Assembly: GCA_037133435.1 (NCBI GenBank)
Contig: JBAXOD010000002.1
Coordinates: 23,545-87,544, forward strand
Direction of reading: 5' to 3'
Origin: Candidatus Moraniibacteriota bacterium
GTDB lineage: Bacteria; Patescibacteriota; Minisyncoccia; Moranbacterales; UBA1568
Length of the DNA stretch: 64,000 nucleotides
The notes beneath the pieces are model-generated. The model did no database searches. It had not been told where the DNA came from and worked only from the letters and a program-made list of their open reading frames with translations. The position numbers were made by a program, and so were the translations under genes. Shown here one piece after another: positions 2,340-42,773 of this stretch; the stretch's first letter is position 1, and each line of letters begins with the position of its first letter.

Positions 2340-2768
2340 AGCGGGTGATGGAAATTTCGTCCTCGATGCCTGCGGGCATCTCGTAGTCCAGGGCAGCGCT
2401 GAATGCTTCCTAATTCGGTCGCATTCATCGACGCTCGACTATTCGCCTTCGCTCACGTCTCGCTTCTGCCCGTTCGATTCCCATCACCCAATTTTCTCCG
2501 AAAATTTGAGCAGGTGATGGAAATCCTCCTCGCTCCGACTCGGAGCCAGGGCGCTACACACAGAATGCTCGCTTACTCGCATTCGACTCGCGCCCTTCGA
2601 TTCCCACATGGACCGCGGGTGATGGAAATTTCGTCCTCGACGCCTGTTGGCGTCTCGTAGTCCAGGGCAGCGCTGAATGCTCCTATTCGTCGCATTCATT
2701 GACACTCAACTGCTCTCCGCCAACTGGCGGATTGCGTCTCGCTTCTGCCCGTTCGATTCCCATCACCA
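2340..2768. repeat. Three tandem degenerate units (~110-150 bp) each beginning GCGGGTGATGGAAAT and ending CGATTCCCATCACC, i.e. mimicking the 5' acceptor and 3' T-arm/acceptor of the adjacent tRNA-Gly
   Basis: Direct reading: unit starts at ~2340, ~2508, ~2619; ends share gtctcgcttctgcccgttcgattcccatcacc; 12-bp closing helix with one A.C mismatch. Confidence 0.6.
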
Positions 2769-2775
2769 CAAGCAA

Positions 2776-2804
2776 GCAAAAAGGACTCATATGAGTCCTT
2801 TTTA
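2776..2804. terminator. Bidirectional rho-independent terminator hairpin aaaaaggactcatatgagtccttttt
   Basis: Perfect 10-bp palindromic stem flanked by A-run and T-run. Confidence 0.6.
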
Positions 2805-2814
2805 CTTGCCTATG

Positions 2815-2887
2815 AGCGGGTGATGGGAATCGAACCCACCTCTCGACCTTGGAAGGGTCGCATAATAAGCCACTATACGACACCCGC
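2815..2887 (-). tRNA. tRNA-Gly (anticodon TCC)
   Basis: Manual fold: acceptor GCGGGTG/CACCCGC, anticodon stem CGACC/GGTCG, loop CTTCCAA, T-arm GTGGG-TTCGATT-CCCAT. Confidence 0.8.
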
Positions 2888-2997
2888 TTTCTTTCGACAG
2901 CATTATAAGCTTCGAAAACTGCTAAAGCTTCAATAGCTTTTGCAGAAATCCTCAAACCGTTACTCCCTGCCATCGGTCTACCGTTCAATGGTATCTG

Positions 2998-3750
2998 CTA
3001 TCTGTTCTCCGAAACCGTTCCCGACCCGGTCAGTCCCGCGAACGGATCGATATGGATGTTCTCCGCCGCGATACCGATACCGAGGAGAAGCGCTTTCATG
3101 GCATCCGCGAATGCCGGTGCGCCTATCACATAATAGAGCGATTCCCGCCATTCTGGCAAGTATTTCCCTATCATTTCCGCACTGATACGGCCTCGTTCCT
3201 CGCCCGGCTCGGTTGAAGGTCCGGTCTCGGCCGACAAGGTGTACACGTAGGTGAAGTCCGGAAGAATGATCGCCCGGATTTCCGAATGGAATGGCACGTC
3301 CTTTTGAAAACGGTTCGACGATATCAGGACGTATTTTCTCGTGTCGTTTTTCGCGACCGCTTCCAGAAGCATCGACCGTGCCGGGGCCATACCGACGCCT
3401 CCCGACAGGATCGCTATCGGTCGTGAATCCCCTTCCGGAACGGTCGCGTTTCCGAGCGGAGCACTTACCGAGATTTCCTCGCCCGCCCTGAGGTCCCACA
3501 TGGTCTTCTTGAAACCCGTCATGCCCTCGCGCATCACGAATACCAGCTCGGCCTCGCTTGGCGCGGACGCAAGCGAAAGCGGGCGCATCCCGGCACGGAC
3601 GTCCGGCTCGACAAGCCGCTCAGCCGGCACCCGAAGCATCACATACTGCCCGGCACGATACGAGTACCCTTCCGGCTTGGAAAAAAAGAATGCGAGCGTG
3701 CGATCGGCGGTCTCCTCGACCCGAATCAACGTGATGGGATAGAATTCCAT
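2998..3750 (-). CDS. FNR-like oxidoreductase, FAD/NAD(P)-binding domain protein
   Basis: RPLSLAS (RxYS-type FAD motif) and GGVGMAP (GGxGxxP NAD(P) motif); 250 aa. Confidence 0.6.
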   Translation of the reverse strand: MEFYPITLIRVEETADRTLAFFFSKPEGYSYRAGQYVMLRVPAERLVEPDVRAGMRPLSLASAPSEAELVFVMREGMTGFKKTMWDLRAGEEISVSAPLGNATVPEGDSRPIAILSGGVGMAPARSMLLEAVAKNDTRKYVLISSNRFQKDVPFHSEIRAIILPDFTYVYTLSAETGPSTEPGEERGRISAEMIGKYLPEWRESLYYVIGAPAFADAMKALLLGIGIAAENIHIDPFAGLTGSGTVSENR

Positions 3751-3856
3751 ACTCCTAATTCTTTATTCTTTATTCATCATCTAACGATTGTCGAGGCGCT
3801 CGGAATCGCTCAGGCATTCGCTGGGCGTCCGGCGTATGTCGGACGAACCAGGGCGG

Positions 3857-4025
3857 GTCTACCTCCCCTGCGGAGCCACGACCGTCCACTGGATGGTCGG
3901 ACACGAATCTTGTCGGGGCACCCGGAATCGGACCGGGACTACCTCCCCTTCGGGGCCACGACCGTCCATCGGGACGGTCGGATAACGTTCTTGTCGGGGC
4001 ACCCGGAATCGGACCGGGACTACCT
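3857..4025. repeat. Two tandem ~84-bp units, each = tRNA-Pro 3' half (cttgtcggggcacccggaatcggaccgggactacct) plus a GC hairpin spacer
   Basis: Exact 36-bp copies at 3909-3944 and 3990-4025; flanking spacers ccacgaccgtcca...ggtcgga also repeated. Confidence 0.7.
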
Positions 4026-4064
4026 GCTCCCAAAGCAGACGTACTACCACTATACTATGCCCCG
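3994..4064 (-). tRNA. tRNA-Pro (anticodon TGG)
   Basis: Manual fold of reverse complement: acceptor CGGGGCA/TGCCCCG, anticodon stem TCTGC/GCAGG, loop TTTGGGA, T-arm CCCGG-TCCGATT-CCGGG. Confidence 0.8.
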
Positions 4065-4090
4065 ACTATTACCCCGACAATAACGCTATC

Positions 4091-4126
4091 CCCAAAGCAG
4101 ACGTACTACCACTATACTATGCCCCG
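4091..4126 (-). pseudogene. Orphan duplicate of tRNA-Pro(TGG) 5' half (through anticodon loop)
   Basis: cccaaagcagacgtactaccactatactatgccccg identical to 4029-4064 but lacks 3' half. Confidence 0.65.
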
Positions 4127-4369
4127 CCAAATAATTTCAATTTTCTCTTTACGGACGAGGCTCGCCCTGATGGGCGACCCGACAATGAACTCGTCCCCGA
4201 AGCAGGCGTACTACTGACATTCATATCTCTTCCCAGTCTACGGACTCTCCGGGAAAAAGCAATCCCGCCTCCTGAAAGAGGCGGGACGGCCCTATCTTTT
4301 ATTTCGTGCAGTACGGAACCCGCCAATGGAAAACCGTCCCTCCGACGGAATCCCGCGAATACTCGCGTA

Positions 4370-4660
4370 CTATTTGACTGCCTCTTTGAGCGTCTTTCCG
4401 GCGGTGAATTTCGGAACGGTCATGGCCGGAATGGTGATCTTGGCCTTGGTCTGGGGGTTGATTCCCTCACGGGCCGCACGGTTCGATACGCGGAACGTAC
4501 CGAATCCGGTGATGGTCACCTTATCGCCCCTGCGGAGCGCGTTCGTAATCTCCTCGACGGCCGTCTCGATGACCGCCTCGACGTCCTTCTTGGAAAGGTC
4601 GAGTTTCGCAACGATCGACGCGACCAGCGCGTCCTTGTTTACGTTTGCCATTGTGTTCAC
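4370..4660 (-). CDS. hup: HU family DNA-binding protein
   Basis: 96 aa; MNKxxLV...GFGTFxVxxRAAREGxNPQT signature of HU/IHF. Confidence 0.9.
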   Translation of the reverse strand: MNTMANVNKDALVASIVAKLDLSKKDVEAVIETAVEEITNALRRGDKVTITGFGTFRVSNRAAREGINPQTKAKITIPAMTVPKFTAGKTLKEAVK

Positions 4661-10444: not shown

Positions 10445-11770
10445 TTACGCCGATACGTCTTCCGATTCGGTTTCCGGCACGGTATCAGTCTCTTCAGCGA
10501 CGGTCTCCGCGATCTCGACCGGTTCACCGGCCTCCGGTTTCGCGATCGGTGCGACTCCTCCGTGCGCCGCCTCTGCTTCCGCGCTCGTCACGTCGATCCG
10601 GCATCCCACGAGCTTCGCCGCGAGCCGCACGTTCTGCCCGCGCTTACCGATAGCAAGCGACAACTGGTCATCAGGCACCAGGACGCGGGCTCGCCGACCC
10701 TCCGCCTCCTCGGCGATCTCCACCGAGAGCACCTTCGCCGGACTCATCGCCGCGGAGATGAATGCCTCGATATCGTCGTTCCACTCGATGATATCTATCT
10801 TCTCGCCACCGAGCTCGTCGATCACGCCCTGAACGCGCGTCCCGCGTTGACCCACGCACGACCCGATCGGGTCGACCCCTTCCTGGTTCGCGGATACCGC
10901 GATCTTGGTGCGGGAGCCGGCCTCTCGGGCGATCGCCTTGATCTCCACCGTCCCGGCGAAGATTTCCGGCACCTCGAGCGAGAACAGGTGACGCACCAAT
11001 CCCGGATGACTCCGGGAGAGTACGATACCGGGTCCCTTGGTATCCGCCTCCACACGGAGCAGATACACCTTCAGATGCTGGTTCATGCGATAGTTTTCCC
11101 CTTCGATCTGCTCGGATGGGAACAGGATGCCGACGGATTTGCCGAGGTCGATATAGATATTTCGTCCCTCGATCCGCTGGACGGTCCCGTTCATCACCTC
11201 GCCCTCGTGGTCCTTGTACTCCTCGTACATGGTCTGCCGTTCGGCCTCACGCAACCGCTGGATGATGACCTGCTTGGCGGTCTGTGCCGCGACCCGGCCG
11301 AAGTCCTCGTGCGGCGGAAGGGGAATCTCGATGACGTCCCCGACCTTCGCACCCTTCTCAAGAAGCTTCGCTTCGTCGAGTGTCAGATCGCGTTCCGGAT
11401 TGTATCGTGGCAGACGGTCTTCCTCCTCTCCCGGCGTCTCCGTCTCGGGAACCTCTTCGACGATTTTCACCTCACCGGTCTCCTCGTCTATCTCGGTCTC
11501 CACGAACTCGCGGGTCGTCTCGTCGACGACCTCTTTCACGAGGAAGTAGCTCGAGGCCTTCGTGACCTCGTCGAACTTCGCCCGGATGACCTGACTCTTC
11601 TTTCCATAGTCACGCTTGTACGCGACCGCGAGCGCGGCTTCCACCACCTCGATGACTTTCTCCTTCGGGAGTCCCTTCTCGTCGACGATCTGCATGATCG
11701 CGCTTCCGAACTCGCTGATGCGTCCCGCGAAGTTTTCCGGCTCCGCCGCGACAACTTTTTTCTTCGGCAT
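10445..11770 (-). CDS. nusA: Transcription termination/antitermination factor NusA
   Basis: N-terminal domain, S1 and tandem KH domains (GSCVGQRGTRVQGVIDELGGEKIDII), acidic C-terminal tail. Confidence 0.9.
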   Translation of the reverse strand: MPKKKVVAAEPENFAGRISEFGSAIMQIVDEKGLPKEKVIEVVEAALAVAYKRDYGKKSQVIRAKFDEVTKASSYFLVKEVVDETTREFVETEIDEETGEVKIVEEVPETETPGEEEDRLPRYNPERDLTLDEAKLLEKGAKVGDVIEIPLPPHEDFGRVAAQTAKQVIIQRLREAERQTMYEEYKDHEGEVMNGTVQRIEGRNIYIDLGKSVGILFPSEQIEGENYRMNQHLKVYLLRVEADTKGPGIVLSRSHPGLVRHLFSLEVPEIFAGTVEIKAIAREAGSRTKIAVSANQEGVDPIGSCVGQRGTRVQGVIDELGGEKIDIIEWNDDIEAFISAAMSPAKVLSVEIAEEAEGRRARVLVPDDQLSLAIGKRGQNVRLAAKLVGCRIDVTSAEAEAAHGGVAPIAKPEAGEPVEIAETVAEETDTVPETESEDVSA

Positions 11771-11989
11771 AGTATTCTTGATTAATTATCGGTCATGATA
11801 CGAATTACATTTCCGATCGACGGGTACGTCTTCCTTTTTCGCGGTGCGCCGATACCGAAACAGCTCGGCCCGGAACACGGCATCTAAAGAAAAAAGTCCG
11901 CTTCAAGCGAACTTCCACACCCGTATCAGATAGTGCCAGTATACTCCCGAACGACCCGGCTGTCAAATGACTATGAGCCTTCACATACC

Positions 11990-12150
11990 TTTGCAGGTTC
12001 ATGGTACAACCGTAAACCTAACTGTCACTATCTTCGATCTAACCGCAACTTTACCGATGATAAACCATGTGGTTCAGGGTACAACCCTGAACCTGCGGGA
12101 ACATGCCTGTTATAAATTCTCCCTTATAAAAGCCATAAATAAGATGGTTC
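11990..12150. repeat. Hairpin repeat family copy a (inverted orientation): ggttcagggtacaaccctgaacc + tcccttataaaagcca
   Basis: Reverse complement matches cgcaggttcagggttgtaccctgaaccac at 40243 and 49647. Confidence 0.6.
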
Positions 12151-12304
12151 TTCCACGAATACGCGCAGCCACATTTTTGATTGACTTTTTTTGTCGTTTG
12201 TGCTATATTTCCCTGTTATGGAGAGTCGTGCCCGGAAGTGTTCATCACCGACGGACAGACTGCCATAACAAGCTTTTTTACAACCATCAAAACAACTTAC
12301 GACC

Positions 12305-13234
12305 ATGGCATGGAAACTACCAACATTGGATGCGCTTACTGATGTAGGCAACATCATTTCAAACGTCGCCAACATCACAAAAACAGGCAAGGAGTACATG
12401 GAGAAACTTGCCCAACAGCAACTCGGATTCGAACTCTTCGGAATCGGAGATTTGAGCGATGAGGCCATCGTAGGCGTCGGTCTACGGACAGCAGCCAAAA
12501 AGCTCTACACTCCGGAAGCATCCGCCGACAAGGCGTTCAGTAAGCTCGATGCTTTCCTAAAATCGTTGAATAATCATCAACGCATTCGGCTACGTCGAAC
12601 CATCGCGAAACTCGTTTTGACTGAACGGCATGAAAACGTCGTCGTCGAAACGAAAACCGACAAAGACGGAGCCAAGACTGAAAAACAGGACCGGCGCCAG
12701 GTTGATTATGAATATACCGCGGATGACCCAAGGGTTCAGTTCATAATGAATATGGCAAAAGAACTCATAAAACCTGGTGGACCTGCTGCTGTAAAAGATC
12801 AACTTCTCGCATTCGACGTTATCCTGGAGAAGGCGATTTATGAAACCCTCTTCGATAAGGTAAATGAGGGCAAGAAAAAGGCCAAAGAATGGATAGACGC
12901 TACGGCAATTCCGAAAACGCAGGATTTCCTGAAAGGCATCTTAAACCGTTTGAATAGGGTTACAGATCCCACCGCGACACCGGATGCATTCATCACGGAA
13001 CAGCAGACAATCATAGCTTCCAGGGAAAATGAAATCCTGAGCGAAGCGAGGAATAACTCGTGGATTCATCTGTTGACGACATCCCTACCGGGACGGATTC
13101 TCTTGGGCATGATCGCACTCGTTGCGATACTGGCTCTCGGCACCGGACTCGGCTGGAAGGTTTTCTTCGGAGTGATCGGCCTCGTGCTGGTAGGTAAATA
13201 TGTGATCGGTTGGTACAAACAGCATCATCCATAA
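12305..13234 (+). CDS. Hypothetical protein, coiled-coil N-region with C-terminal TM hairpin
   Basis: 309 aa ORF in lower-GC segment; C-terminal ILLGMIALVAILALGTGLGWKVFFGVIGLVLVG hydrophobic pair; no recognisable motif. Confidence 0.5.
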   Translation: MAWKLPTLDALTDVGNIISNVANITKTGKEYMEKLAQQQLGFELFGIGDLSDEAIVGVGLRTAAKKLYTPEASADKAFSKLDAFLKSLNNHQRIRLRRTIAKLVLTERHENVVVETKTDKDGAKTEKQDRRQVDYEYTADDPRVQFIMNMAKELIKPGGPAAVKDQLLAFDVILEKAIYETLFDKVNEGKKKAKEWIDATAIPKTQDFLKGILNRLNRVTDPTATPDAFITEQQTIIASRENEILSEARNNSWIHLLTTSLPGRILLGMIALVAILALGTGLGWKVFFGVIGLVLVGKYVIGWYKQHHP

Positions 13235-13262
13235 TTTTATTAAAAACAAAAAGCAACTAACG

Positions 13263-14492
13263 ATGCAACAAATCATTGATTTACTCGGTCTCATAGGGAT
13301 CAAGCTGACCCAAGAGATGCGATCCCTGCTTGTAAACGGAGTCACACGGCTCTATCAGACCTTGGTACTGTGGGTCCTGGCAATCATCATGTTGGTGCCC
13401 GTCGCGATTTTCTGCGGAGCAAACGGATGGAATTGGGTGAATCTCACCCTCTTCGTCTTGTTGCTCCCCTGTGTGGGAATCGCGTTCTTCACACCGGCAA
13501 ACGTCGTCTTCATGTTTCTGTTCGGCGGAGCGATGTGCTCGCTTTCCGATGCGAGCCGGCAACGATTTCTCGCCGGAGGCGAAGCCTACGTGAAAGGGAG
13601 CATCCGATTGATAGGCGGCTGCCTATTGGTCCTCGAAACGATCCTTTTCTATCTGGGATTCGTCGACATCAAGGAAAACCCATGGGCGGTCGTAGCGATA
13701 TTGATCGTAGCGATATTCATCACCCTCGATATCAAATTCGGTGGACGGCCCAGCTTCGGCAAAAAGATCCTCTATATTGTCGTCCCGAGTCTCATCGGTA
13801 TCGTCGCAGCGGTAAGTCTCATCAAGCCTGGCACGTGGACCAGTATTGGTTTACCGGCATGGTCCCTTGCGGATCACGGGCAACTTAACGACGTGACCGC
13901 GAGAATCGGGAAACAGATAGAAGAAAACCGGATCGCGGCGAGAAAAAAATCCGCCGACTCGCTCTATGCTGTCGTGGAATCCGGAAAGAGACTCTCTCCT
14001 GCCGGAGTACGACTCTATCACGAACTCATTCGTGAGGGGAAGAAGTACGATATCGTGTCAGCGGCCAAACAGACGAAGGAAAACGTCAGCGGAAACCAGG
14101 AAGTCCGTGAAAGGCTCTTCACGGTCCAACTCGATGGCACCAAGGAGAAGAAAGAGTCCGGTCTTCAGGATGGAGAACACATCTTCGTCATCAAGGATGG
14201 TCCGAACGGTCGTCCGCTCCTTCCCGTCTATACCATGACGAAAGATTTTGAGGGACGCGACGTGCAGATCCTATTCAATTCGTACGAACTCCAAAAGGGT
14301 GGTGAGAATACGATTGTCGCGATGGCGGAAGACGGGAACGAAGTCAGGGACGGCGGAAACATCACCATCCAAGGAGGAACGGTCAAAGTGCGCCTCGTCA
14401 TCGCGCCATGGCTGCAGAAAAAAATCGATTCAAAAAAATATATTCTCGGCGACGTGGTTGCCGTACTGGCATTCCAAAAGTCGAATTATTGA
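13263..14492 (+). CDS. Hypothetical polytopic membrane protein (N-terminal ~6 TM, C-terminal soluble domain)
   Basis: 409 aa; multiple hydrophobic helices in first 200 aa; no recognisable motif. Confidence 0.5.
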   Translation: MQQIIDLLGLIGIKLTQEMRSLLVNGVTRLYQTLVLWVLAIIMLVPVAIFCGANGWNWVNLTLFVLLLPCVGIAFFTPANVVFMFLFGGAMCSLSDASRQRFLAGGEAYVKGSIRLIGGCLLVLETILFYLGFVDIKENPWAVVAILIVAIFITLDIKFGGRPSFGKKILYIVVPSLIGIVAAVSLIKPGTWTSIGLPAWSLADHGQLNDVTARIGKQIEENRIAARKKSADSLYAVVESGKRLSPAGVRLYHELIREGKKYDIVSAAKQTKENVSGNQEVRERLFTVQLDGTKEKKESGLQDGEHIFVIKDGPNGRPLLPVYTMTKDFEGRDVQILFNSYELQKGGENTIVAMAEDGNEVRDGGNITIQGGTVKVRLVIAPWLQKKIDSKKYILGDVVAVLAFQKSNY

Positions 14493-14513
14493 ATCGACGG
14501 CCCCCACAAACCA

Positions 14514-14550
14514 AAAGCGGCTCTCATGAACTTGAGGCCGCCTTTTCTTT
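14514..14550. terminator. Bidirectional terminator between convergent genes
   Basis: aaaagcggctctcatgaacttgaggccgcctttt hairpin. Confidence 0.55.
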
Positions 14551-14568
14551 TCTAAAATAATTCAATCG

Positions 14569-15774
14569 TCAGGTCGTCGCGAAGAACGTGGCGATGGTGC
14601 GTACGATAATAAGCGAGACGAGCGCGACCGCCGTACCGATGATGGCGAACTTCACGATGTTCTTGGCGACATCCGTCTTCTTCTCGTCGCCACCGGCCGC
14701 GAAGTACATGAGCCCGCCGACGACGATCATGAGCATCGCCAGGATGCCGACCATGGCAAGGAGGAAGTTCAGCAGATTCGACGCGATCGTCATGAGCGAC
14801 GGGGCCGCGTTGACCTCGGCCGGGATATTGTTCGTGCCGTTGCCCCAATTGAGGATCGCCGCGATCTCCTTGAGGAAAGACGGGGCGGCAATACCGATGG
14901 CAAGACCGATCATCGCGGCCGTGATCATCTTTTTCGCGGTACCGATGTTCTTCTCGTTCCCGGCCGAGAAGATATAGAATATCCCGCCAAGAACCAGGAA
15001 CACGAGCGCGATCGTCACGATGACCCCTTGTGTATAGGCAAGGAACACTCCGAGCACTTCCTGGACGGTGTCGTATTTGAGCGGATTGATGAACTGGATC
15101 GTACTCCCGCCGGCCGTCGAAGATCCGGATGATCCGGTTGGACTCGTTGTACTTGACGAACAACACTTCTGAGTAGCGCTACCACAGTCACCCGCGATTT
15201 CACTGGTTCCACTCGGACATCCTGCACTGATATCGGCACACGTTCCGGACTGCGATGAACAGGTTCCGGTAGTGACCACGGCACCGCTCCCCACGCAGCA
15301 CTTGTTAGTGGTCCCGGAGCAATTTCCGTCCCAGGTCTTTCCAGTCGCACATGTCGCCGTCGCCCCTCCGGCCAGACACGCTCCCGACGCATGAGATGTA
15401 AGCCCAAGACAACCGGTGGTAGCGGTATTTCCACAACAATATGAGCTACCGGTACCGCAATCCGTCGCGCCGGTAAATTCTTCTCCCGGACAGCTTCCGG
15501 CCTGACATGCCCCTCCGAGATTCTGACACGTGATCGCGTCGTTATATGACTGACAGATAACAGTAATTCCGGTTGCCGCCAACTGGGATTTCATCGAATT
15601 ACAGTCGGTATACGTATAATTCTGAAAAGACGTCCCCGAACTGTTCGTATAGATCGAGCCGTTCGAATTCGCCAGACGATACTTGGTCGCCGCATGAACT
15701 GGTACCGTTTGGAAAAGCGCGAAAATCAGGACGATGAGCGATCTAGCGAAAAAACGGAATGATTTCGTTTTCAT
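14569..15774 (-). CDS. Secreted Cys/Gly/Thr-rich protein fused to VirB2/TrbC-like pilin domain (pilin paralog 1)
   Basis: Signal peptide MKTKSFRFFARSLIVLIFALFQTVPVHA; ~40 Cys in C-G-T-S-rich region; C-terminus VLGGIFYIFSAGNEKNIGTAKKMITAAMIGLAIGIAA matches the AGGDExKxxAKKM two-helix motif of the downstream paralogs; start at 15774 Met. Confidence 0.5.
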   Translation of the reverse strand: MKTKSFRFFARSLIVLIFALFQTVPVHAATKYRLANSNGSIYTNSSGTSFQNYTYTDCNSMKSQLAATGITVICQSYNDAITCQNLGGACQAGSCPGEEFTGATDCGTGSSYCCGNTATTGCLGLTSHASGACLAGGATATCATGKTWDGNCSGTTNKCCVGSGAVVTTGTCSSQSGTCADISAGCPSGTSEIAGDCGSATQKCCSSSTTSPTGSSGSSTAGGSTIQFINPLKYDTVQEVLGVFLAYTQGVIVTIALVFLVLGGIFYIFSAGNEKNIGTAKKMITAAMIGLAIGIAAPSFLKEIAAILNWGNGTNNIPAEVNAAPSLMTIASNLLNFLLAMVGILAMLMIVVGGLMYFAAGGDEKKTDVAKNIVKFAIIGTAVALVSLIIVRTIATFFATT

Positions 15775-15784
15775 AGTGTTCGTT

Positions 15785-16240
15785 TCAATATGCAGCCGAA
15801 CCGCCACTTCCCGACCCAGACCCGCCCGAGACGAGCTGCTGCACCGTATACACGATCATATACGCGAGGAGTCCGACCGCCACGCCGGTCGCGGCGTATT
15901 GCATCATGTTCTTCGCGCTTTCGGTCTTCTTCTCGTCGCCGCCTGCGAGCAGGTACTGTATGCCGGCCACCACGAAGAGAAGTATCGCGAGGATGCCGAG
16001 GATGCCCATGAGCCAATAGATGACGGTCGCGATGACCGGACCCGGCTCACGATCGGAAAGACCCGTCGCGGAGGATGTCGGCACGCAGACCCCGCTCATG
16101 AGTACGGTTTTTCCGTCCGAGCAGCTGGCCACCGCCCCGACCAGTTGCGGGGCGAACGTAAGAAGGACCAGAGCGGTCGCGAGTGCCGACTTGAGGAACC
16201 GTGTTGGGACGTTCATAGGAAAAGCAAAACTTTTTTTCAC
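15785..16240 (-). CDS. VirB2/TrbC-like conjugative pilin family protein (paralog 2)
   Basis: Signal peptide, then WLMGILGILAILLFVVAGIQYLLAGGDEKKTESAKNMMQYAATGVAVGLLAY two-helix hydrophobic core with charged loop. Confidence 0.5.
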   Translation of the reverse strand: MKKSFAFPMNVPTRFLKSALATALVLLTFAPQLVGAVASCSDGKTVLMSGVCVPTSSATGLSDREPGPVIATVIYWLMGILGILAILLFVVAGIQYLLAGGDEKKTESAKNMMQYAATGVAVGLLAYMIVYTVQQLVSGGSGSGSGGSAAY

Positions 16241-16327
16241 CTATCATCACTTTCGATAGTACTCCGATTTTTGAAAAAAAACAACTCCGCCACACGGCGG
16301 AGTCGTTCCGAAACGAAGGATGTGTAC

Positions 16328-16726
16328 TCAGTACGAGATGCTGTCCGCCGCGTCCGAACCGGTAAGGCTCGCAACCGTATTCACGGCGACATATCCGACG
16401 AGCGCGACGACGATCGCGATGCTCGCGTATACCATCATCTTCTTCGCGCTCTCGGTCTTCGTCTCGTCCCCCGCGGCGATGAGGTACATGACACCCGCTA
16501 TCACGAACGAGATGATGGCGCCGATACCGAGAAGCATCATGAGCCAGTTCATGACGTTGACGAGGATCTGTCCGGCCGAACTTTCCGTCATCCCGGCCGT
16601 GGTGGAAACGGTCTGATACGTGGTACCGGCACTGTCGATGGTCCCGAAACCGAGAGCACCAGTGACCGACGGAACCAAGAGCAGTGCGGCGACCAGGAAT
16701 GCGACCGACCGTTTGGATATCTTCAT
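16328..16726 (-). CDS. VirB2/TrbC-like conjugative pilin family protein (paralog 3)
   Basis: Start MKISKRSVAFLVAALLLVP with GGAGG SD 7 nt upstream; NWLMMLLGIGAIISFVIAGVMYLIAAGDETKTESAKKMMVYASIAIVVALVGY. Confidence 0.55.
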   Translation of the reverse strand: MKISKRSVAFLVAALLLVPSVTGALGFGTIDSAGTTYQTVSTTAGMTESSAGQILVNVMNWLMMLLGIGAIISFVIAGVMYLIAAGDETKTESAKKMMVYASIAIVVALVGYVAVNTVASLTGSDAADSISY

Positions 16727-16849
16727 ATGTTTACCTCCTGTGTTATTTTTTTCCGATGAAACATTCAGTGACACTTCAGATGCTACTCCAATTTTCACAA
16801 AAAAACAACTCCGCCCTGTGGCGGAGCCGTTCTTGTCATCGCGTGACGA

Positions 16850-17260
16850 CTAGTAGCTGATATTGTCCCCAGCGTTCGAACCCGTAAGGTTCGTGATGGT
16901 GTTGACGGCGACATATCCGACGAGTGCCACGACGATCGCGATGATCGCGTAGACCATCATCTTCTTCGCGTTGTCGGTCTTCGCCTCGTCCCCTCCGGCG
17001 ACGAGGTACAGGATACCCGCGATCACGAACGAGATGATGGCGCCGATACCGAGAAGCATCATAAGCCAGTTCATGACGTTGACGAGCATCTGTCCGATGG
17101 AGCTCTTCGTCATTCCGGCGTTCTGAGATACGGTCGTGTACGCCGTACCGCCGGTATCATATTTTCCGAATCCCGAGGTCGGTACGGCCGCGAACACGGC
17201 GACCGGTGCGACCAACGCGGCGACGATCGAGAACATGAGTATCTGTTTCAAAAATTTCAT
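16850..17260 (-). CDS. VirB2/TrbC-like conjugative pilin family protein (paralog 4)
   Basis: Signal peptide MKFLKQILMFSIVAALVAPVAVFA, GGAGG SD; core nearly identical to paralog 3 (NWLMMLLGIGAIISFVIAGILYLVAGGDEAKTDNAKKMMVYAIIAIVVALVGY). Confidence 0.55.
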   Translation of the reverse strand: MKFLKQILMFSIVAALVAPVAVFAAVPTSGFGKYDTGGTAYTTVSQNAGMTKSSIGQMLVNVMNWLMMLLGIGAIISFVIAGILYLVAGGDEAKTDNAKKMMVYAIIAIVVALVGYVAVNTITNLTGSNAGDNISY

Positions 17261-17310
17261 ATGTTCACCTCCTTTCCGTTATTTTTTATTTCCGTTTTCC
17301 ACTGTCCCGA

Positions 17311-17583
17311 TTATACCATAGCCGCCAGCTGTCGGATAGCGATCAGCATCAGGAGGACGACCGAGAGACCGAGGATGGAATAGCCGAGCATCCGTTTCGC
17401 CGATTTCGATTGCTCCTCGTCACCGCCGGCCATCATATACATCACACCGGCCGCGATCAGCGCGACAAGCGCGACGAGACCGAAGAGCGACAACACGAGT
17501 TCGAGGGCACGCATACCGACGAGCTGAAGCGGCGGGGCATCATCTATCACGCCGGACGCTTTCGCTACGGGGATAAGGTTCAT
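17311..17583 (-). CDS. Short VirB2/TrbC-like pilin family protein (paralog 5)
   Basis: 90 aa; LVALVALIAAGVMYMMAGGDEEQSKSAKRMLGYSILGLSVVLLMLIAI retains the AGGDE..K.AK+M motif. Confidence 0.4.
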   Translation of the reverse strand: MNLIPVAKASGVIDDAPPLQLVGMRALELVLSLFGLVALVALIAAGVMYMMAGGDEEQSKSAKRMLGYSILGLSVVLLMLIAIRQLAAMV

Positions 17584-30292: not shown

Positions 30293-30865
30293 ATGGAAGG
30301 ACTGTTTTCCCCCTCATCCGCCGTTTTGTTCGCGCTCGGCGCCGCAGGGTTCGCCGTTTTTTCATTCGCGCTGTCGCTGTCGCTCTTCCTGCGGATCCGC
30401 CGGATGAAACGCGACCTCTCATCCTTCCTTTCCGGCAAGGACGGCAAGGATCTCGAAGAGCTCGTCCTCGGACAGGGAAAGGAGATCACGGCGATCAATG
30501 GCGAAATCAAGAATCTCTACGATGCCGCCGAGGAGCTCTATCTGCTCGGTCAGGAAAGCATCCATCGGACCGAGGTCGTCCGTTTCAATCCTTTCAAGGA
30601 AGTCGGCGGCAACCAGAGCTTCGTCATCGCGTTCCTCAACGGTCGCAACACCGGATTCGTCCTCTCCTCGCTCCACACGCGCGAAGGGACACGGGTCTAC
30701 GCGAAACCCGTGGTGAGCGGTGCCGAGACCGAGGGACATCCTCTCTCGAAGGAAGAAAAGTACGCCATCGGACTGGCCGCCAAGAAACGTATCGGCAAGG
30801 AGTCGACCGAACAGTCGGGGAAGAAACCGCTTCCGTCTAACAAAGCACTGAATACGACCGTATGA
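30293..30865 (+). CDS. N-terminally membrane-anchored protein, DUF4446-like
   Basis: [26 protein letters not shown]; [31 protein letters not shown] resembles DUF4446 core; overlaps infB start by 4 nt. Confidence 0.4.
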
Positions 30866-32640
30866 ACGAGAACGAATCGGAAACCGTACCGAAAGTGGCC
30901 ATTCCGCCGACCATCACCGTGAAGGCGTTTTCCGATACCCTCGGACTGCCCGTCGCGCAGGTAATGACGGAACTCATGAAAAACGGCATCTTCGCGACCA
31001 TCAACGAGGAGATCGATTTCGATACCGCGAGCATCATCGCGACCGACCTCGGCATGGAGGCGGTCCCGGCCATCGAATCCGGCGATGCTGATAAGCCGCT
31101 CTCGCTCGAGGACATGCTTGACATCTGCGCGAAAGAAAAGAACTCGGACAAGCGCCTCGAGCCACGCGCACCGATCGTCACGATTCTCGGACATGTCGAC
31201 CACGGCAAGACCACGCTCCTCGACACGATCCGCAAGGCGAGCGTCGCGACCGGGGAAGCGGGTGGCATCACACAACATCTCGGCACCTATCAGGTCAAGA
31301 AGCGCGGCAAACTCATCACGTTCATCGACACCCCCGGACACGAGGCGTTTTCCGCGATGCGCAAGCGCGGCGTCTCTATCGCCGACATCGCCATCCTCGT
31401 CGTCGCGGCCGATGACGGCGTCCAGAAGCAGACCAAGGAAGTCATCACGTACCTCAAGGAGCGCGGACTCCCCATCATCGTGGCCATCAACAAGATCGAC
31501 AAGCCGGACGCGAATATCATGCGCATCAAGCAGGATCTTGCCGAGAATGACATCCTCATCGAAGAATGGGGCGGGAAAATCCTGTGCTCCGAGATCAGCG
31601 CGAAACAGAACGTCGGCATCGATTCACTGCTCGAAAACATCCTCCTCGTCAACGAGGTGGAAGAATTTTCCGCCGACGCGAAGCGCAGCGGACTCGCGGT
31701 CATCCTCGAATCGCACCTCGACAAGCAGAAGGGCCCAGTCGCCACGAGCCTGGTCCGGACCGGCACCCTCAAGGTCGGTCAGGACGTGATCGCCGGATCG
31801 GTCTTCGGCCGTATCCGTCATATGGAAAACTACGCCGGCAAGACCGTCGAATCCGCCGGTCCCTCGACGCCGGTCATCATCTACGGCTTCAGCGATACTC
31901 CGAAGGTGAACGACGTCGTTTCGGTCGCCAGCGGCAAGGCATCGGCACGGGTCCGTTCCGAACGGGCCCAGACGACCGCTAAGACCCTTATCAGGGCCAA
32001 ATCCGAGGAAGAAGGTGTCGAAGGTCCGAAGCGGCTTTCCTTCGTCCTCAAGGCGGATGTGGAAGGCTCGCTCGAGGCGATCGAACAGATTCTCGGTACC
32101 ATCGTCCACGACGAAGTCGCGCTCGAGGAGATTTCCTCCGGGGTCGGAGCCATCACCGAATCCGACGTGAAGATGGCGGAGAGCGCGGGGGCGGTCATCT
32201 TCGGATTCAACGTGGAACCGACCGCGGTCGCCCGACGCATGGCCGAAAAGAGCGGCACGGCGATCGAGAGCTTCGGAATCATTTATAAACTCGTCGACCG
32301 GGCGAAGGAGCGGCTGTCCGAGTTATTGCCGCCGGAAACGATACGCACCGATCTCGGCACCCTGTCCGTCCTCGCGGTCTTCAAGACCGGCAAACGCGAC
32401 CAGATCGTCGGCGGACGCGTCGGTAATGGAAAACTCTTCAAAGGTACGAAAGTCGACATCCGCCGCAAGGACGAGGTCGTCGGCACCGGTATCATCGTCA
32501 ATCTCCAGCAGAACAAACAGAACGTCGAGGAGGTCGGGCAGGGAAACGAATGTGGCGTCGTCTTCGAAGGCAATGCGAAAATCGCGGATGGGGATACGCT
32601 TCTCGTCTATCGCGAGGAAACGAAGCGCCGGACGCTCTAG
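30862..32640 (+). CDS. infB: Translation initiation factor IF-2 (short form)
   Basis: [12 protein letters not shown] (G1), DTPGHEAF (G3), NKID (G4), C-terminal beta-barrels; 592 aa. Confidence 0.9.
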
Positions 32641-35714: not shown

Positions 35715-38312
35715 CTATCGCCTATACGCCGACCTCCGATCATCAGGCTCGGAAGCGGGAATCAGGGAAGAAACGAAACCGACCGAGAACAGGAGGAATG
35801 CCGAGGTCAGGATCATCCTGACGGCGAAGACGACGAACGGGGGCACGTATTTCGACACCGCTGCGAAAAATCGGTTCGATCCGGACGAGGCGACGGTCAG
35901 ATCCTCGTTCGCTATCGCTTGAACACGTACGTCACTTACGACCTTCGTTTCCGAGGAATCGATGACGTTGACTCCCCACAGATCTCGGAGTGCCACACGT
36001 TTCTCGTTCGCTTGGACGATTTTCCCCGTAAAGTTGACGAAGTTCGCGTCACCGATCGTGCCGGGTTTCGGAAGCGTATACGCTATCTGCATATCCGCGG
36101 ACTCGTCCACTGTTTTGCCGTCCACCGTCCAGACATGCGACAGCAGATACTTCTTCGCGTATCCCGGAATGATCGACGCCTTCATCGGTATGACGGTGCC
36201 GCTCGCGAACCGTTCGAAAATTTCGTCACTATGCTCGTCGTTCTTGGTACCGTCAAGTTCCGTAAACGTGCCGACGTATCGCGGCCAGACGGCACTCGTG
36301 TCGTTCGATTCGAGCAGGATTTCCGGATCGACGACCTGATAGTTCCGCGAAAGGGACAACGCCTTTCCCGTCGCTACATTCACCGCTTCCATCCGTACGG
36401 TGTACGTTTCTCCCGGCTCGCCCGTTACCGCGAAAAACGCGGTGTTCCCGAGCCCTCCCGAAGGACAGTCGACGGACGAGACGGTCGAGGAACAGTTCAG
36501 TGCGGCACCGTTTATGGTCCATCTGAAATTCTTCCACTCGGTAGAAGTCGCGTTGCGGAGCGTGACCCCGAGAATCTCGTTTTTCATGACGCGACACGAG
36601 ATACGGTTCAGGTTCTCCTTCGCTTCGGCCGCGGTGGAAGGCGTCGGATAGTACATGTCACAGATCGGATCAATCGAGGTGTCAAGCGCCACCTGTGCCG
36701 CGCCGGATGTGGACGCGGTCGCGGTGGTCGTATACGTGGAGATCTTCTTGTCCGTATTGGTGACTTTCACGACCACGTCGCTTTTCCCTTCGGGTCGGGC
36801 GATCATGTTCTGCGCAACCGTACTGCCGCCCGACGCCGTCGCGGTATAGGTGGTCGCGGAATAATTCTCTCCCGCCCGGGTCGTGATACGCATGTAGACC
36901 GGATCGGTATTCGCGAACGTACCAAGAATCTCCGGCTTCATATCAAGCAGCACTTTGATGGAAGTCAGGCCGTTCTGCGAGATCGCCTGGGTGGTGGAAT
37001 TCGGGAGCGTGATGAGCTTTCCAGCCGTGAGTAAACCCGCCGCCTCAAGCTGGGCCGTGACGTCCTTCCAGCCGTCGACCGGATTATTGCTCAGCTCGAC
37101 GGTCCACGAATAGGTGATTTCTTCGGGACTTTTGGATGAATTGTCGACCGAAGCCGTAGCAGTGACCATGTCCCCGCCGATTCCTTCCGTCTTGTCGTTC
37201 ACCGGATTATCCGGCGTCGCGGAAACGGAGAGCTCGAGTTTCTTGGAAGAACCGGATTCAGAATCCATCGGATCGACCAGGTTCATCTCGAGACAGTCAT
37301 CGATATCCCCTTTCGTCAGGCTGGTCGTCAAAAACGTGACCGGATACCCGTGTACCGTCTCTATATAGCTCCCAGGATTCTTGATGGGGCACTTCTTGTT
37401 CTTCGAGAATCCCCACTGGACCATCATCGTCGCGTCATCATGCTTCGTCGCGACCATCGACGATCCCTCCACGAGCACCCCGACTTTGTCTCCGGTCTGA
37501 TAGTTCCACTTGAAGGTATCCCGACCCAGGCCGACCGCGTTCGCCTCGTCCTTGTTGCCGTTACCGCTCGTATCCGGATCGTGCGGGTTGGTCCCCCATG
37601 CCTTCTCGTCCGACAGTCCGAATGTTCCGTCCGTTCCGCCGACCTGACTCCCGTTCAATTCCGGGAACAAGTGGACGCATGCCGGCAACTCATAAAAATG
37701 TCCGCTGACCGGATCGTGCATGTAGCACCAATCCTTCTTCGTATCGACGACGAGCTCCCCTCCGAAATGAGCCTTGTATCCGTCGTTATCATCGTCAGTG
37801 TCGTATTTGAATCCGTTACTGTCGGCATTGTCCGTAGCGAGGATTCGCGAAGCGGCGACTTTCCAATCATTGACGGTCACCGACCCGTCGTTGTCCGAAT
37901 CACAGTAACTCGCCTGACCGGAAGAACCGCCGAGTTCGCATCCGTTCCGCTTCAGATACCAGGTGTAATAAAGCTGTGACTCGCTGGCATTGGAAAAATA
38001 GGTCGGGAACGCCTTCGCGCTGAGTTTCTGCCCGTCCTTGGGATCCGAAGGGCTGAACGCAATCGTCACCTCGGGCGCGTTGCCCTTGTTTTCGGACACG
38101 TTGAACGACTCCCCGTATCTGCGTATGACCGCGGGGTCGAGATGATACCGCTGTTCAATGGCCGACGCTATCGAATCGGCACTCGGGAAATCCAAAGCGA
38201 CCACCTTTTCGGAAATGATGAAACCGGACAAGAAAATCACGAAAGCGACGGGAATCATTCGTCTTCCCGATTGTTTCCTCATTGGATGCATAGCGTTGAA
38301 TTTATTTTTCAT
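35715..38312 (-). CDS. Large secreted/surface protein (865 aa), Thr/Ser/Asp/Asn-rich, N-terminal signal-anchor
   Basis: Start MKNKFNAMHPMRKQSGRRMIPVAFVIFLSGFII; no catalytic motifs; composition of adhesin-like proteins. Confidence 0.5.
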   Translation of the reverse strand: MKNKFNAMHPMRKQSGRRMIPVAFVIFLSGFIISEKVVALDFPSADSIASAIEQRYHLDPAVIRRYGESFNVSENKGNAPEVTIAFSPSDPKDGQKLSAKAFPTYFSNASESQLYYTWYLKRNGCELGGSSGQASYCDSDNDGSVTVNDWKVAASRILATDNADSNGFKYDTDDDNDGYKAHFGGELVVDTKKDWCYMHDPVSGHFYELPACVHLFPELNGSQVGGTDGTFGLSDEKAWGTNPHDPDTSGNGNKDEANAVGLGRDTFKWNYQTGDKVGVLVEGSSMVATKHDDATMMVQWGFSKNKKCPIKNPGSYIETVHGYPVTFLTTSLTKGDIDDCLEMNLVDPMDSESGSSKKLELSVSATPDNPVNDKTEGIGGDMVTATASVDNSSKSPEEITYSWTVELSNNPVDGWKDVTAQLEAAGLLTAGKLITLPNSTTQAISQNGLTSIKVLLDMKPEILGTFANTDPVYMRITTRAGENYSATTYTATASGGSTVAQNMIARPEGKSDVVVKVTNTDKKISTYTTTATASTSGAAQVALDTSIDPICDMYYPTPSTAAEAKENLNRISCRVMKNEILGVTLRNATSTEWKNFRWTINGAALNCSSTVSSVDCPSGGLGNTAFFAVTGEPGETYTVRMEAVNVATGKALSLSRNYQVVDPEILLESNDTSAVWPRYVGTFTELDGTKNDEHSDEIFERFASGTVIPMKASIIPGYAKKYLLSHVWTVDGKTVDESADMQIAYTLPKPGTIGDANFVNFTGKIVQANEKRVALRDLWGVNVIDSSETKVVSDVRVQAIANEDLTVASSGSNRFFAAVSKYVPPFVVFAVRMILTSAFLLFSVGFVSSLIPASEPDDRRSAYRR

Positions 38313-38356
38313 CGTCCGTATGATAATGATTCCGATGGCACGTGAAACTGAAGACG

Positions 38357-39022
38357 TCACCTGCCAAAAACGAGAAACGCCACGTCGGCAAGAAACAGCG
38401 TCAGCCAGCCGGAAAACCAGGAATAATAGATCGAGCGGGTACGATGCGCGACGAACCCGGACGCGAATGCCGCAAGAATCATCGGCGTGCTGTTCCAACC
38501 GATACCGCCGAATGCCGCCAAAAACGCGACGAAAATTCCTCCTTGCAGAAAAACCGCGAGGATGCCGGTCTTGGACAACCACGAAAGCATGATGAGGCCG
38601 CGGAAAAACACCTCAAAGAGAACGGAGACGATACCGACCAGTACCACCTCATACAAAACGAAATAGAGGAACGAATCCTGAATGAAGTTTGGCAGCGAAT
38701 ACGTCACATCGGTCCCTCCGATAGCAATCACCGAGTACCAGACGACGAGAAACGGGATGACCGCGACCACGGCGGTCAGAAAACCGTATTTTTTCACGCT
38801 CCCCTGAAAACCGATCGATGAAAGCGGCTCTTTCTCAACGAAAATCACGTAGAGGATAGGGAGACACAGGAGAAAGACGATCCCCAACACGCCGGCCTGC
38901 AGGGATTCGTCCATATTCGCGTCGGCCGGAAACAAGCGAAATGCGAGAAGCGTCGCCACGACAAACAGTCCCGTCGAGAGGAACCGCTTCATATCGAAAG
39001 CCAGAATAGGAGTCTCACTCAT
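38357..39022 (-). CDS. CPBP family intramembrane metalloprotease (CAAX protease-like)
   Basis: EVFFRGLI motif (EExxxR), multiple TM, TATAAT 12 nt upstream of chosen start MSETPIL. Confidence 0.65.
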   Translation of the reverse strand: MSETPILAFDMKRFLSTGLFVVATLLAFRLFPADANMDESLQAGVLGIVFLLCLPILYVIFVEKEPLSSIGFQGSVKKYGFLTAVVAVIPFLVVWYSVIAIGGTDVTYSLPNFIQDSFLYFVLYEVVLVGIVSVLFEVFFRGLIMLSWLSKTGILAVFLQGGIFVAFLAAFGGIGWNSTPMILAAFASGFVAHRTRSIYYSWFSGWLTLFLADVAFLVFGR

Positions 39023-39076
39023 AGCATTGCTTCCATTATAACGTTTTTTTTCAATCTTGAAAATTTCTGACAAAAT

Positions 39077-40147
39077 TTAGGCGTTCTTGATCTTGTTCTT
39101 GATGCGACTCAGAAGAAACGCGACCAGAAATGACTGAAGCGGGAAGACGGCGATGATCGGGATGCTCTCGATTACCGCCACGATCACAATGACACCGATA
39201 CGCTTTGCTAGTAATATGATTTTCTCTTTCGGCGGCAGTTTCCTCGTATTCTTGTCAAGTGCTATGATGATGATCTGTCCGATAACGAACGGTCCCGAAA
39301 TGAGTGTGGTCACCCCCGGAAGAAAGAAATCGAAAAAATCGGTCAGGTCGTCGATGCCGCCGAGCATGTAAATCAATAATTTTGATGTAAACGACAAATC
39401 TGAGGCGTTCGGATCATGCTGTGCTGTTCCACTCCCCTGCACGGTCACGTTCCCCGTCTGCCCCGATTTGCGTTGCTCTTCCCAGGACGGGTATCGGGTC
39501 GGCCGTCCTCCCATGGCTTCCGATGATTCTTCCGCATCCTCCTCATCCGATTCAGTAGTCACCGAATTCGGAACAAAACGCAGATTATTTGGAGATTCGC
39601 TATATCGGACATTCCGCTGTTTCGGCCGGGCTGTCGTCGATGCGGCTGGTTTCCCCGAAGCGGAGTTCGAGAGCTGCAAACTGTAATTCTCACGTGCTCG
39701 TTTCGTTTCGATCGCAAGCCGTGTCGCGTCCGGATTTCGATCTTGTTCGAGTTCAAGCTCATCCCTTAAAAGTGCACCAAAAGATTGTACATTCATATTC
39801 TCAGGCCGGTTCGCAGTCAATTCCGCGGGCGTTTCCGAAGTGGCGATACGGCGCTGCAGACGAGTACTCTCAGTCGCTCGTTTCTCGAGCATCGCACGCT
39901 GAACAGCGGCTGATTCCCGGTCACTGTCGATCGCGTCCGCTGTCAAAAGAGCGTCGGCCGCTACGACCGTACGGGCGATATTTTGTCGTGCTCCCGCGGC
40001 CTCATTCATCCTCCGTGCACGCAGGCCCGCAAGCATGCCCGACATACGTGCCGCATTCCGTGCGTTAGGCGAAATCACGGTCCGATCCGAAGCCGGCAAG
40101 CGGGCACGACCGTCGGGAGCTCCTGTATTTGGATTCGAAGTACTCAT
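39077..40147 (-). CDS. Hypothetical protein: ~260-aa disordered polar N-region plus C-terminal TM pair
   Basis: 356-aa ORF, C-terminal FVIGQIIIIAL and IGVIVIVAVIESIPIIAVF helices. Confidence 0.45.
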   Translation of the reverse strand: MSTSNPNTGAPDGRARLPASDRTVISPNARNAARMSGMLAGLRARRMNEAAGARQNIARTVVAADALLTADAIDSDRESAAVQRAMLEKRATESTRLQRRIATSETPAELTANRPENMNVQSFGALLRDELELEQDRNPDATRLAIETKRARENYSLQLSNSASGKPAASTTARPKQRNVRYSESPNNLRFVPNSVTTESDEEDAEESSEAMGGRPTRYPSWEEQRKSGQTGNVTVQGSGTAQHDPNASDLSFTSKLLIYMLGGIDDLTDFFDFFLPGVTTLISGPFVIGQIIIIALDKNTRKLPPKEKIILLAKRIGVIVIVAVIESIPIIAVFPLQSFLVAFLLSRIKNKIKNA

Positions 40148-40229
40148 AGGTACTGACTACGTATCACGAATCATTATGAGAGAGACCGAAAGGAGCGATA
40201 GAATCAAAAAGACGACCTCCCGTGACGGA

Positions 40230-42769: not shown

Positions 42770-42773
42770 ATGT

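Follow-up and report, generated by a model that had tools for sequence, protein, structure and literature searches.

We analyzed a 64,000-nt chromosomal stretch, hereafter called the "window", from the metagenome-assembled genome (MAG) of a Candidatus Moraniibacteriota bacterium of the candidate phyla radiation (CPR; Patescibacteria); the parent contig is 111.8 kb long. Between nusA and an array of pilin genes, the window carries two adjacent open reading frames (ORFs), ORF1 and ORF2. We found that this pair is an ancestral, fixed resident of the nusA–pilin array junction, and that it evolves several times faster than its housekeeping flanks, at a rate similar to that of the variable pilin-fusion gene next to it. 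The simplest account is that homologous recombination among related genomes of differing GC content has repeatedly replaced alleles of the pair and, independently of these, the C-terminal domain of ORF2. We tentatively propose that the two proteins may form a variable, surface-exposed membrane complex beside the pilins, for which cell-surface recognition of a host, a sibling or a phage would be the most likely mechanism.

The genes at the center of this analysis are the following.
12305-13234, plus strand: ORF1, 309 amino acids (aa)
13263-14492, plus strand: ORF2, 409 aa
14569-15807, minus strand: pilin-fusion gene nearest ORF2, 412 aa, with a signal peptide, a Cys-rich low-complexity region and two PF18895 matches

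The original prediction, made from the DNA letters, had described two motif-less membrane proteins in an AT-richer segment bounded by a repeat and a bidirectional terminator, and had offered them as unrecognized components of a type IV secretion system (T4SS), such as analogs of VirB8, VirB5 or VirB6. The two ORFs were confirmed exactly, in coordinates and strand, and each is identical to one of the NCBI hypothetical proteins WCL23_00690 and WCL23_00695. Pfam, PHROG and NCBIfam gave nothing above noise, in keeping with the motif-less description, and no paralogs of ORF1 or ORF2 were found elsewhere in the window.

How widely is the pair distributed? A k-mer-prefiltered search of 5.8 billion proteins recovered nothing beyond the protein itself and a single near-identical fragment. 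The k-mer search with residues 192-409 of ORF2 (218 aa) retrieved no protein and missed even its own identical database entry, so that this negative result is weak. When 1.84 billion representatives were scanned exhaustively with HMMER, 20 relatives of ORF1 were detected at E<=1e-3; their identity over the matched stretches is 29-50%, and most of them have 277-319 aa. The related loci and contigs compared with the window are labeled L001-L019; a narrower family alignment used for the locus search gave only three genome loci and three metagenome loci. In all 13 contigs that reach far enough, the ORF1-family gene is followed by a same-strand gene that is homologous to ORF2 or occupies its position. 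The gap between the two genes is 1-23 nt in those relatives for which it was measured from the gene calls, and 28 nt in the window. In the N-terminal membrane part and the linker, most of the downstream proteins are homologous to one another, and the window ORF2 is connected to them through L010 (E 6e-14) and L007 (E 7e-5). The downstream protein of L016 had no BLASTP match to the others, and was counted by position only.

Related loci on contigs of sufficient length (L006, L007, L008, L011, L014, L016, L017 and L019) share one gene order: ClpP, Tig, in some cases inorganic pyrophosphatase (PPase), and NusA on one strand, the ORF1- and ORF2-family genes on the other, and then convergent PF18895 pilins. 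The nusA gene lies divergently upstream of the ORF1 family in L006, L007, L008, L011, L014, L016 and L019, and a PF18895 pilin gene lies convergently downstream in L006, L007, L011, L014, L016 and L017. Since a convergent PF18895 pilin gene follows the pair in all seven related contigs that are long enough, the predicted adjacency to a pilin array is real as gene order. The window arrangement was also assembled identically from independent samples (L001-L004). Samples in which this organism occurs include SRR12676967, ERZ27299975, JGI 3300020164, SRR7053307 and ERZ18639229. The named sources are Candidatus Moranbacteria/Moraniibacteriota MAGs and one MAG labeled Bdellovibrionales with the same CPR-type context; thus far, all occurrences of the pair are either in CPR genomes of the Moranbacteria/Moraniibacteriota type or in unclassified metagenome contigs whose synteny is the same. 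Because the same locus holds the pair in every relative with enough context, the pair is not an insertion or a foreign island.

While the position of the pair is fixed, its sequence is not. Across seven genomes, NusA is 70-84% identical, as compared to 27-55% for ORF1, 22-43% for ORF2 and 25-58% for the pilin fusion. The divergence of ORF2 is best described in terms of its three parts.
13263-13826, plus strand: ORF2 residues 1-188, membrane domain, with homologs in the N-terminal halves of the corresponding downstream genes (L007, L010 and others)
13827-14099, plus strand: ORF2 residues 189-279, helical linker or stalk with the family-conserved E-N...G..L[ST]P motif
14100-14492, plus strand: ORF2 residues 280-409 and the stop codon, variable beta-rich C-terminal domain, predicted to be extracytoplasmic

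The ORF2-family proteins of L006 and L007 share 51% identity over 262 residues of membrane part and linker, beyond which they are unrelated, while those of L006, L011 and L014 align with each other to the protein end. The locus L005 is 93.6% identical to the window at the DNA level, including one 430-nt stretch without a difference. Its ORF2 linker is still homologous up to the residues GNQ, and after residue ~279 the protein changes to an L010-like domain (score 50, reached by none of 300 shuffles). A second diverged patch in L005 covers loop 4 and the fifth transmembrane (TM) helix.

The base composition of the locus bears on the same question. The AT-richer segment claimed at about 11.9-14.5 kb was borne out when GC was computed over same-size windows: the segment 11900-14560 has a GC of 0.491, as compared to 0.541 in the window as a whole, 0.593 in tig plus nusA and 0.559 in the pilin array. 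It stands at the 10th percentile among same-size windows and is one of five similarly low regions in the 64 kb; the anomaly is real but modest. The dip is strongest in the 534-bp intergenic region that separates ORF1 from the divergent nusA (0.449) and in ORF1 itself (0.482, with a third-codon-position GC, GC3, of 0.53). ORF2 is mildly low (GC 0.520, GC3 0.63), and the GC3 of tig and nusA is 0.74-0.79.

In L011, the two cassette genes have GC3 values of 0.68 and 0.79, as compared to 0.38-0.39 in the flanks. The GC content there steps from ~0.42 to ~0.60 and back at the cassette edges—the mirror image of the window dip—and the resulting island (positions 2550-4650, GC 0.55-0.62 in a background of 0.40-0.46) covers exactly the ORF1- and ORF2-family genes. 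A chimeric assembly of L011 is unlikely. Since the cassette GC3 departs from the flanks in opposite directions in L011 and in the window (0.53/0.63 versus 0.785 for nusA), it points to allele exchange by recombination. Across six to seven genomes, the GC3 of the cassette genes fails to follow that of nusA (r -0.51 and -0.44), while that of the pilin gene does so (r +0.77). We therefore attribute the GC dip of the window to allele replacement between genomes of differing GC.

Next, we consider the architecture of the two proteins. ORF2 has five robust TM helices (34-50, 61-77, 120-136, 141-157 and 171-187) and, at 81-97, a stretch of marginal hydrophobicity; of the six TM helices originally claimed, five thus hold, and the sixth corresponds to the marginal stretch only. 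The topology was derived from a hand-made hydropathy analysis and a positive-inside count. In all nine five-TM members of the family, the loop K+R counts alternate high, low, high, low, high from the N-terminus, and in the five-TM model of the window ORF2, 11 K/R residues lie inside and one outside. From this alternation, the N-terminus is predicted to be inside and the C-terminal tail outside; in L016, the sole seven-TM member, the C-terminus is likewise predicted to be outside. By this sequence-based topology, the stalk and the variable domain of ORF2 are probably extracytoplasmic.

ORF1 has the claimed C-terminal TM hairpin (265-283 and 286-304), with neither a signal peptide nor a hydrophobic N-terminus. 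Its AlphaFold model contains long helices at 178-259 and depicts a conserved and charged, putatively cytoplasmic alpha/beta domain, followed by the long helices and the C-terminal membrane anchor. The confident core of the model had no fold match in the PDB or BFVD. The family shares the motifs HQxxRxR...LTE[RK][FH]E and [FD]RRxxDYE[YFW]TAEDPRV, the invariant residues R97, T138, D141 and R143, and a C-terminal TM anchor that follows basic residues. Most members end, like bacterial tail-anchored proteins, in a single TM helix after a K/R-rich stretch, whereas the C-terminus of the window ORF1 is a TM hairpin; tail anchoring defines a class of topology and not a functional family, and the cytoplasmic domain of ORF1 has no known relative. 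As judged from its sequence, ORF1 is the founding member of a small, putatively tail-anchored family with a predicted cytoplasmic domain.

The dN/dS of ORF1 against the strain variant L005, calculated outside the diverged patch, is 0.24, which indicates constraint. In L005 (ENA ERZ18639229 scaffold_43992), ORF1 has an in-frame TAA at codon 86, matching window positions 12555-12585. The stop lies in a 24-nt patch with nine substitutions, while the rest of the gene looks constrained; it could mean that the gene is a pseudogene or is split, or it could be an error of assembly.

Several weak matches to known families were rejected as noise. The Pfam matches were far below the cut-offs, and mostly fell in TM regions or were inconsistent among members: DUF7827 in ORF2 (E 0.017), DUF4131/ComEC N-terminal domain in two ORF2 homologs (E 0.006-0.015), YndJ, and GrpE in one ORF1 homolog. 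The PADLOC match of ORF1 to LeoBC (E 0.0023, 15 bits) was rejected because only one of 19 family members matches. LeoBC of the Eleos system is a dynamin-like defense protein with a GTPase domain, and neither a GTPase motif nor a Pfam dynamin match was found in ORF1.

How might these two proteins act? In the mechanism that we tentatively favor, ORF2 would cross the membrane five times from an inside N-terminus, and display outside the cell a helical stalk together with a small beta-rich domain that can be interchanged. ORF1 would be cytoplasmic and tethered by its C-terminus to the same membrane, where it is most likely the cytoplasmic partner of ORF2 and may couple or anchor ORF2 on that side. 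Whole alleles, and separately the C-terminal domain of ORF2, would be exchanged by homologous recombination. The outward domain of ORF2 may thereby face the host cell, sibling cells or phages, acting alongside the variable pilins. The topology, the surface exposure, the physical interaction between ORF1 and ORF2 and the recognition role are predictions. Several points weigh against the proposal. All of the synteny comes from one lineage, and the pilin adjacency could therefore be inherited gene order; moreover, the pair is transcribed convergently to the pilins, and not with them. The GC3 correlations come from only six to seven genomes, and the GC island of L011 from a single metagenomic contig. 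Counting the stretch 81-97 as a sixth TM helix would flip the topology of ORF2, and the single-sequence AlphaFold model of ORF2 is of low confidence (pLDDT 45.6). Finally, since one natural variant has an in-frame stop in ORF1, this protein may be dispensable. A more specific form of the proposal—in which ORF1 and ORF2 would be the specificity module of the Patescibacterial pilin/T4SS apparatus, with the outer domain of ORF2 picking the host or sibling to be engaged or excluded, and ORF1 relaying or gating—appears to us rather improbable.

Is the pair instead a component of the T4SS? VirB2-like pilin arrays (PF18895) and T4SSs occur phylum-wide in Patescibacteria (PMC12102498). The arrays are known to be variable, and in Southlakia epibionticum, the one genetically tractable species, both they and the T4SS are essential (PMC12102498, PMC12857230). 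VirB6 and VirB8 homologs are often undetectable in the phylum, VirB8 especially, and divergence is suspected (PMC12102498, PMC12857230). Against this background, the T4SS-component idea is reasonable a priori.

Of the proposed analogies, that with VirB6 was not supported beyond a general likeness in architecture. The extended VirB6 architecture comprises at least five TM helices and a C-proximal hydrophilic domain (PMC12857230); ORF2 and its relatives share the polytopic character of VirB6/TrbL (PF04610), with at least five TM helices. Like extended VirB6/TraG proteins, ORF2 adjoins VirB2-like pilin genes and has a C-proximal hydrophilic domain that is polymorphic between strains, but it is much smaller, and its family comes from one lineage only. 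While the architecture fits, the profile matches and the neighborhood do not. The Pfam models for TrbL/VirB6, VirB8 and VirB5 had no match in ORF1 or ORF2 (E<=1 for ORF2, E<=0.5 for seven homologs), and the ORF2-family profile had no match in the PDB. Matches to PDB sequences of a sensory rhodopsin (E 0.15), 14-3-3 (E 0.2) and a designed protein (E 0.02) were noise. The virB4-like gene (40433-42769, PF19044) lies 26 kb and more than 20 genes from the pair, beyond the neighborhood of ~20 coding sequences.

The other two analogies failed on topology. ORF1 resembles VirB8 (PF04335; PrgL/TraM in monoderms) in being small, membrane-associated and near T4SS-type pilins, in a phylum mostly without VirB8 (PMC12102498). 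However, VirB8 has an N-terminal anchor and an NTF2-like domain outside the cytoplasm, whereas ORF1 is anchored at its C-terminus, with its domain predicted to be in the cytoplasm—the opposite arrangement. VirB5/TraC is a secreted protein with a Sec signal peptide and an elongated helical shape, located at the pilus tip, while ORF1 lacks a signal peptide. The structural comparison gave neither analogy any help, as the ORF1 model had no fold match to any T4SS subunit in the PDB. With the PF18895 pilins themselves, the pair shares the neighborhood, a similar divergence rate and a suspected logic of variation for host adaptation (PMC12102498). Neither ORF1 nor ORF2 matches PF18895 or TrbC (PF04956), however, and they differ in size and topology from VirB2-like pilins, which are small proteins with two TM helices; furthermore, the GC3 of the pilin gene follows the genome, while that of the cassette does not.

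We therefore weighed our proposal against four alternatives. The pair may be a highly diverged structural or assembly part of the Patescibacterial T4SS or VirB2-like pilus, with ORF2 serving as an extended-VirB6 channel or platform, or as a pilin insertion or maturation factor, and ORF1 as a cytoplasmic accessory. The invariable adjacency to the pilin array, the extended-VirB6 architecture of ORF2 (PMC12857230) and the frequent failure to detect VirB6 and VirB8 in the phylum (PMC12102498) all favor this explanation. It has to contend with the missing profile and fold matches and the opposite topology of ORF1 described above. In addition, the distant virB4 cluster already has its own polytopic and three-TM candidates, to which the pair has no profile similarity; the family is confined so far to one lineage, whereas the pilin arrays and T4SS occur throughout the phylum; one strain has an interrupted ORF1; and core machine parts seldom swap domains between strains. 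The pilin adjacency is the only positive T4SS link, and it comes from a single lineage. A VirB6-like or other pilus-related role is unsupported, and we regard this explanation as unlikely. Equally unlikely, in our estimation, is a lineage-specific envelope or membrane housekeeping pair unconnected with the pilins, the gene order of which was inherited and the divergence of which reflects weak constraint in small CPR genomes. It accords with the facts that all contexts come from one clade with collinear HU, RNase Y, iPGM, ClpP, Tig and NusA, that transcription is convergent to the pilins, and that other unknown or membrane genes of the window are equally low in GC3. Weak constraint, however, leaves unexplained why the C-terminal domain is replaced between 94%-identical strains and why the GC3 of L011 rises by +0.3 to +0.4 within the cassette only, and the core motifs of ORF1 are strongly conserved.

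A membrane-bound conflict system is less probable than either of these, and we consider it doubtful. Such a system could be an abortive-infection-like anti-phage sensor-effector, or an entry- or self-exclusion determinant resembling TraG-Eex or ConG-YddJ. Exclusion specificity in SXT/R391 elements and ICEBs1 is known to depend on variable regions of VirB6/TraG-family proteins, and the exclusion-determining regions of TraG and ConG are polymorphic between strains. Rapid evolution, horizontal allele exchange, strain mosaicism and occasional inactivation are also typical of conflict genes. Nevertheless, no credible PADLOC match was obtained (LeoBC in one of 19 members), the family has no relatives in phages or viral contigs and no recognizable effector domain, and the locus is always held by the same family, unlike defense hotspots. 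Finally, the low GC had suggested a recently acquired foreign island, such as a remnant of a prophage or an integrative and conjugative element, and the segment does lie below both flanks in GC and has palindromic repeats at one edge. This connotation did not survive the comparison, as the locus is ancestral in the lineage: the same pair occupies the same position in every relative examined, and the repeat at the edge belongs to a palindrome that is dispersed in the chromosome. The segment borders have no integrase, tRNA or flanking direct repeats, and phage relatives were absent from a tblastn search of 50,697 phage records, from IMG/VR and from PHROG. Membership in a prophage or genomic island was accordingly rejected, and a recent foreign origin seems to us very improbable.

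Two other kinds of known system were compared with the pair and rejected. Like polymorphic toxins (contact-dependent inhibition, CDI, and Rhs systems), ORF2 combines a conserved N-terminal part with a C-terminal domain exchanged between close strains, but its conserved part is an integral membrane domain, and toxin and trafficking domains are lacking. No immunity gene is present either, as the terminator and the convergent pilin gene directly follow ORF2. ORF2 is also not the target of a diversity-generating retroelement, since its 3′ region is not repeated in the window and the substitutions relative to L005 are not adenine-specific; a Pfam scan of ~37 of the larger ORFs, which was not exhaustive for the window, revealed no reverse transcriptase.

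The sequence elements around the pair, between nusA and the pilin-fusion gene, are as follows.
11996-12018, no strand assigned: first hairpin of repeat locus a, a degenerate copy of a 23-nt palindrome with three mismatches to GGTTCAGGGTACAACCCTGAACC
12071-12093, no strand assigned: second hairpin of repeat locus a, a perfect 10-3-10 palindrome, GGTTCAGGGT-ACA-ACCCTGAACC
12181-12209, plus strand: sigma-70-type promoter of the ORF1-ORF2 operon, TTGACT - 17 nt - TG-extended TATATT, a 10/12 consensus match
14513-14546, no strand assigned: hairpin of a bidirectional intrinsic terminator that separates ORF2 from the pilin-fusion gene converging on it

ORF1 and ORF2 make up a tight two-gene operon with its own promoter and bidirectional terminator. 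The TTGAC -35 element and the TATAAT-like -10 element of the promoter are kept in place in five of six aligned relatives, the exception being L014. The predicted bidirectional terminator is indeed a hairpin with a U-rich tail on each strand: on the plus strand, its folding energy is -15.5 kcal/mol (z -3.7) with the tail UUUUCUUUUC, and on the minus strand, it is -19.1 kcal/mol with the tail UUUUGGUUUG. The upstream boundary repeat proved to be real as well, and consists of the two palindrome copies of locus a. The hairpin at 12071-12093 has a folding energy of -17.7 kcal/mol (z -3.3), and that at 11996-12018, which sits between the divergent nusA and ORF1 promoters, one of -9.3 kcal/mol (z -2.6); whether the latter copy belongs to the ORF1-ORF2 operon is uncertain. 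Further copies lie at 40246-40268 and 49650-49672, and the flanks are conserved (GTAAACCnnGTG...TGCG). The window thus has four copies in 64 kb, where none would be expected by chance, and they are located upstream of ORF1, just after virB4, and near a low-GC region and an integrase. The palindrome was not found at the loci of the relatives. It may be a dispersed element similar to repetitive extragenic palindromes, or a shared operator.

The leaders on both sides of the intergenic region have features of their own. In the nusA leader (11892-11966, minus strand), a hairpin with a U-run comes after a strong promoter (TTGACA, 17 nt, TATACT), and both the promoter and the hairpin are conserved in sequence in five relatives; the hairpin is probably an attenuator or an autoregulatory terminator. 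In L006, L007, L008, L011 and L016, the 5′ untranslated region, ~100 nt upstream of the ORF1-family start, contains a long-range stem, GGTGCCT...AGGCACC, around a variable hairpin. This conserved stem shows almost no covariation, and the stem of the window differs (GTTATGG...CCATAAC). Rfam had no match at E<=1 in the nusA-ORF1 intergenic region.

On one side, the neighbors of the pair are the housekeeping genes for RNase Y, iPGM, ClpP, trigger factor and NusA. The inorganic pyrophosphatase gene, which lies between tig and nusA in L007, L011, L014 and L016, is missing from that position in the window. On the other side, the pilin array (14569-17583) contains four or five PF18895 "T4SS pilin" genes (E 1e-6 to 1e-14). 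The best PF18895 match of the 412-aa fusion is at residues 338-405, and the equivalent fusions in the relatives occupy the same position and have 243-276 aa. Further neighbors on this side encode an SBP, glycosyltransferases, IF-2 and the CCA-adding enzyme. The nusA (10445-11770) and infB (30862-32640) genes are unlinked, being 19 kb apart on opposite strands.

The T4SS-like cluster of the window (35715-48404, minus strand) encodes the VirB4-like ATPase, a 228-aa protein and a three-TM 132-aa protein upstream of VirB4, a 621-aa protein, and an 825-aa protein with ~7 TM helices and a low GC3 of 0.53. ORF1 and ORF2 have no profile similarity to the 825-aa and 132-aa candidates. Two genes of the cluster, 39077-40147 (with a C-terminal TM hairpin) and 38357-39073 (~6 TM helices), have an ORF1- plus ORF2-like architecture without sequence similarity. 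Paralogy of the pair with these two genes or with the 825-aa polytopic protein was rejected, since profile similarity was absent. Pfam had no match in the cluster proteins 39077-40147, 42774-43460, 43947-45812, 45927-48404 and 35715-38582, a scan that left out 38357-39073 and 43491-43889. Beyond the cluster, two tandem repeats of ~100 nt (ggggaacgggaggggatgttattcggttcacgggttaacgagttaacg...) at 49960-50170 lie upstream of a tyrosine recombinase gene (50194-51177) and adjoin the stretch of lowest GC in the window (46-50 kb).

The choice of host and the attachment to it are largely unexplained in Patescibacteria, and several expected parts of their T4SS are missing (PMC12102498, PMC12857230). The pair described here is a candidate host-, sibling- or phage-facing specificity determinant in Moranbacteria, and it defines two new protein families, one of which has a confidently predicted core that lacks a match in the PDB. 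If ORF1 and ORF2 were merely a fast-drifting envelope pair, the value of the finding would be smaller, but the locus would still exemplify a GC anomaly that arises from allele replacement at a fixed position and not from an inserted island. If they do act as a specificity module, they would represent a previously unknown, recombination-shuffled recognition system that helps to set the host range of episymbiotic CPR bacteria.

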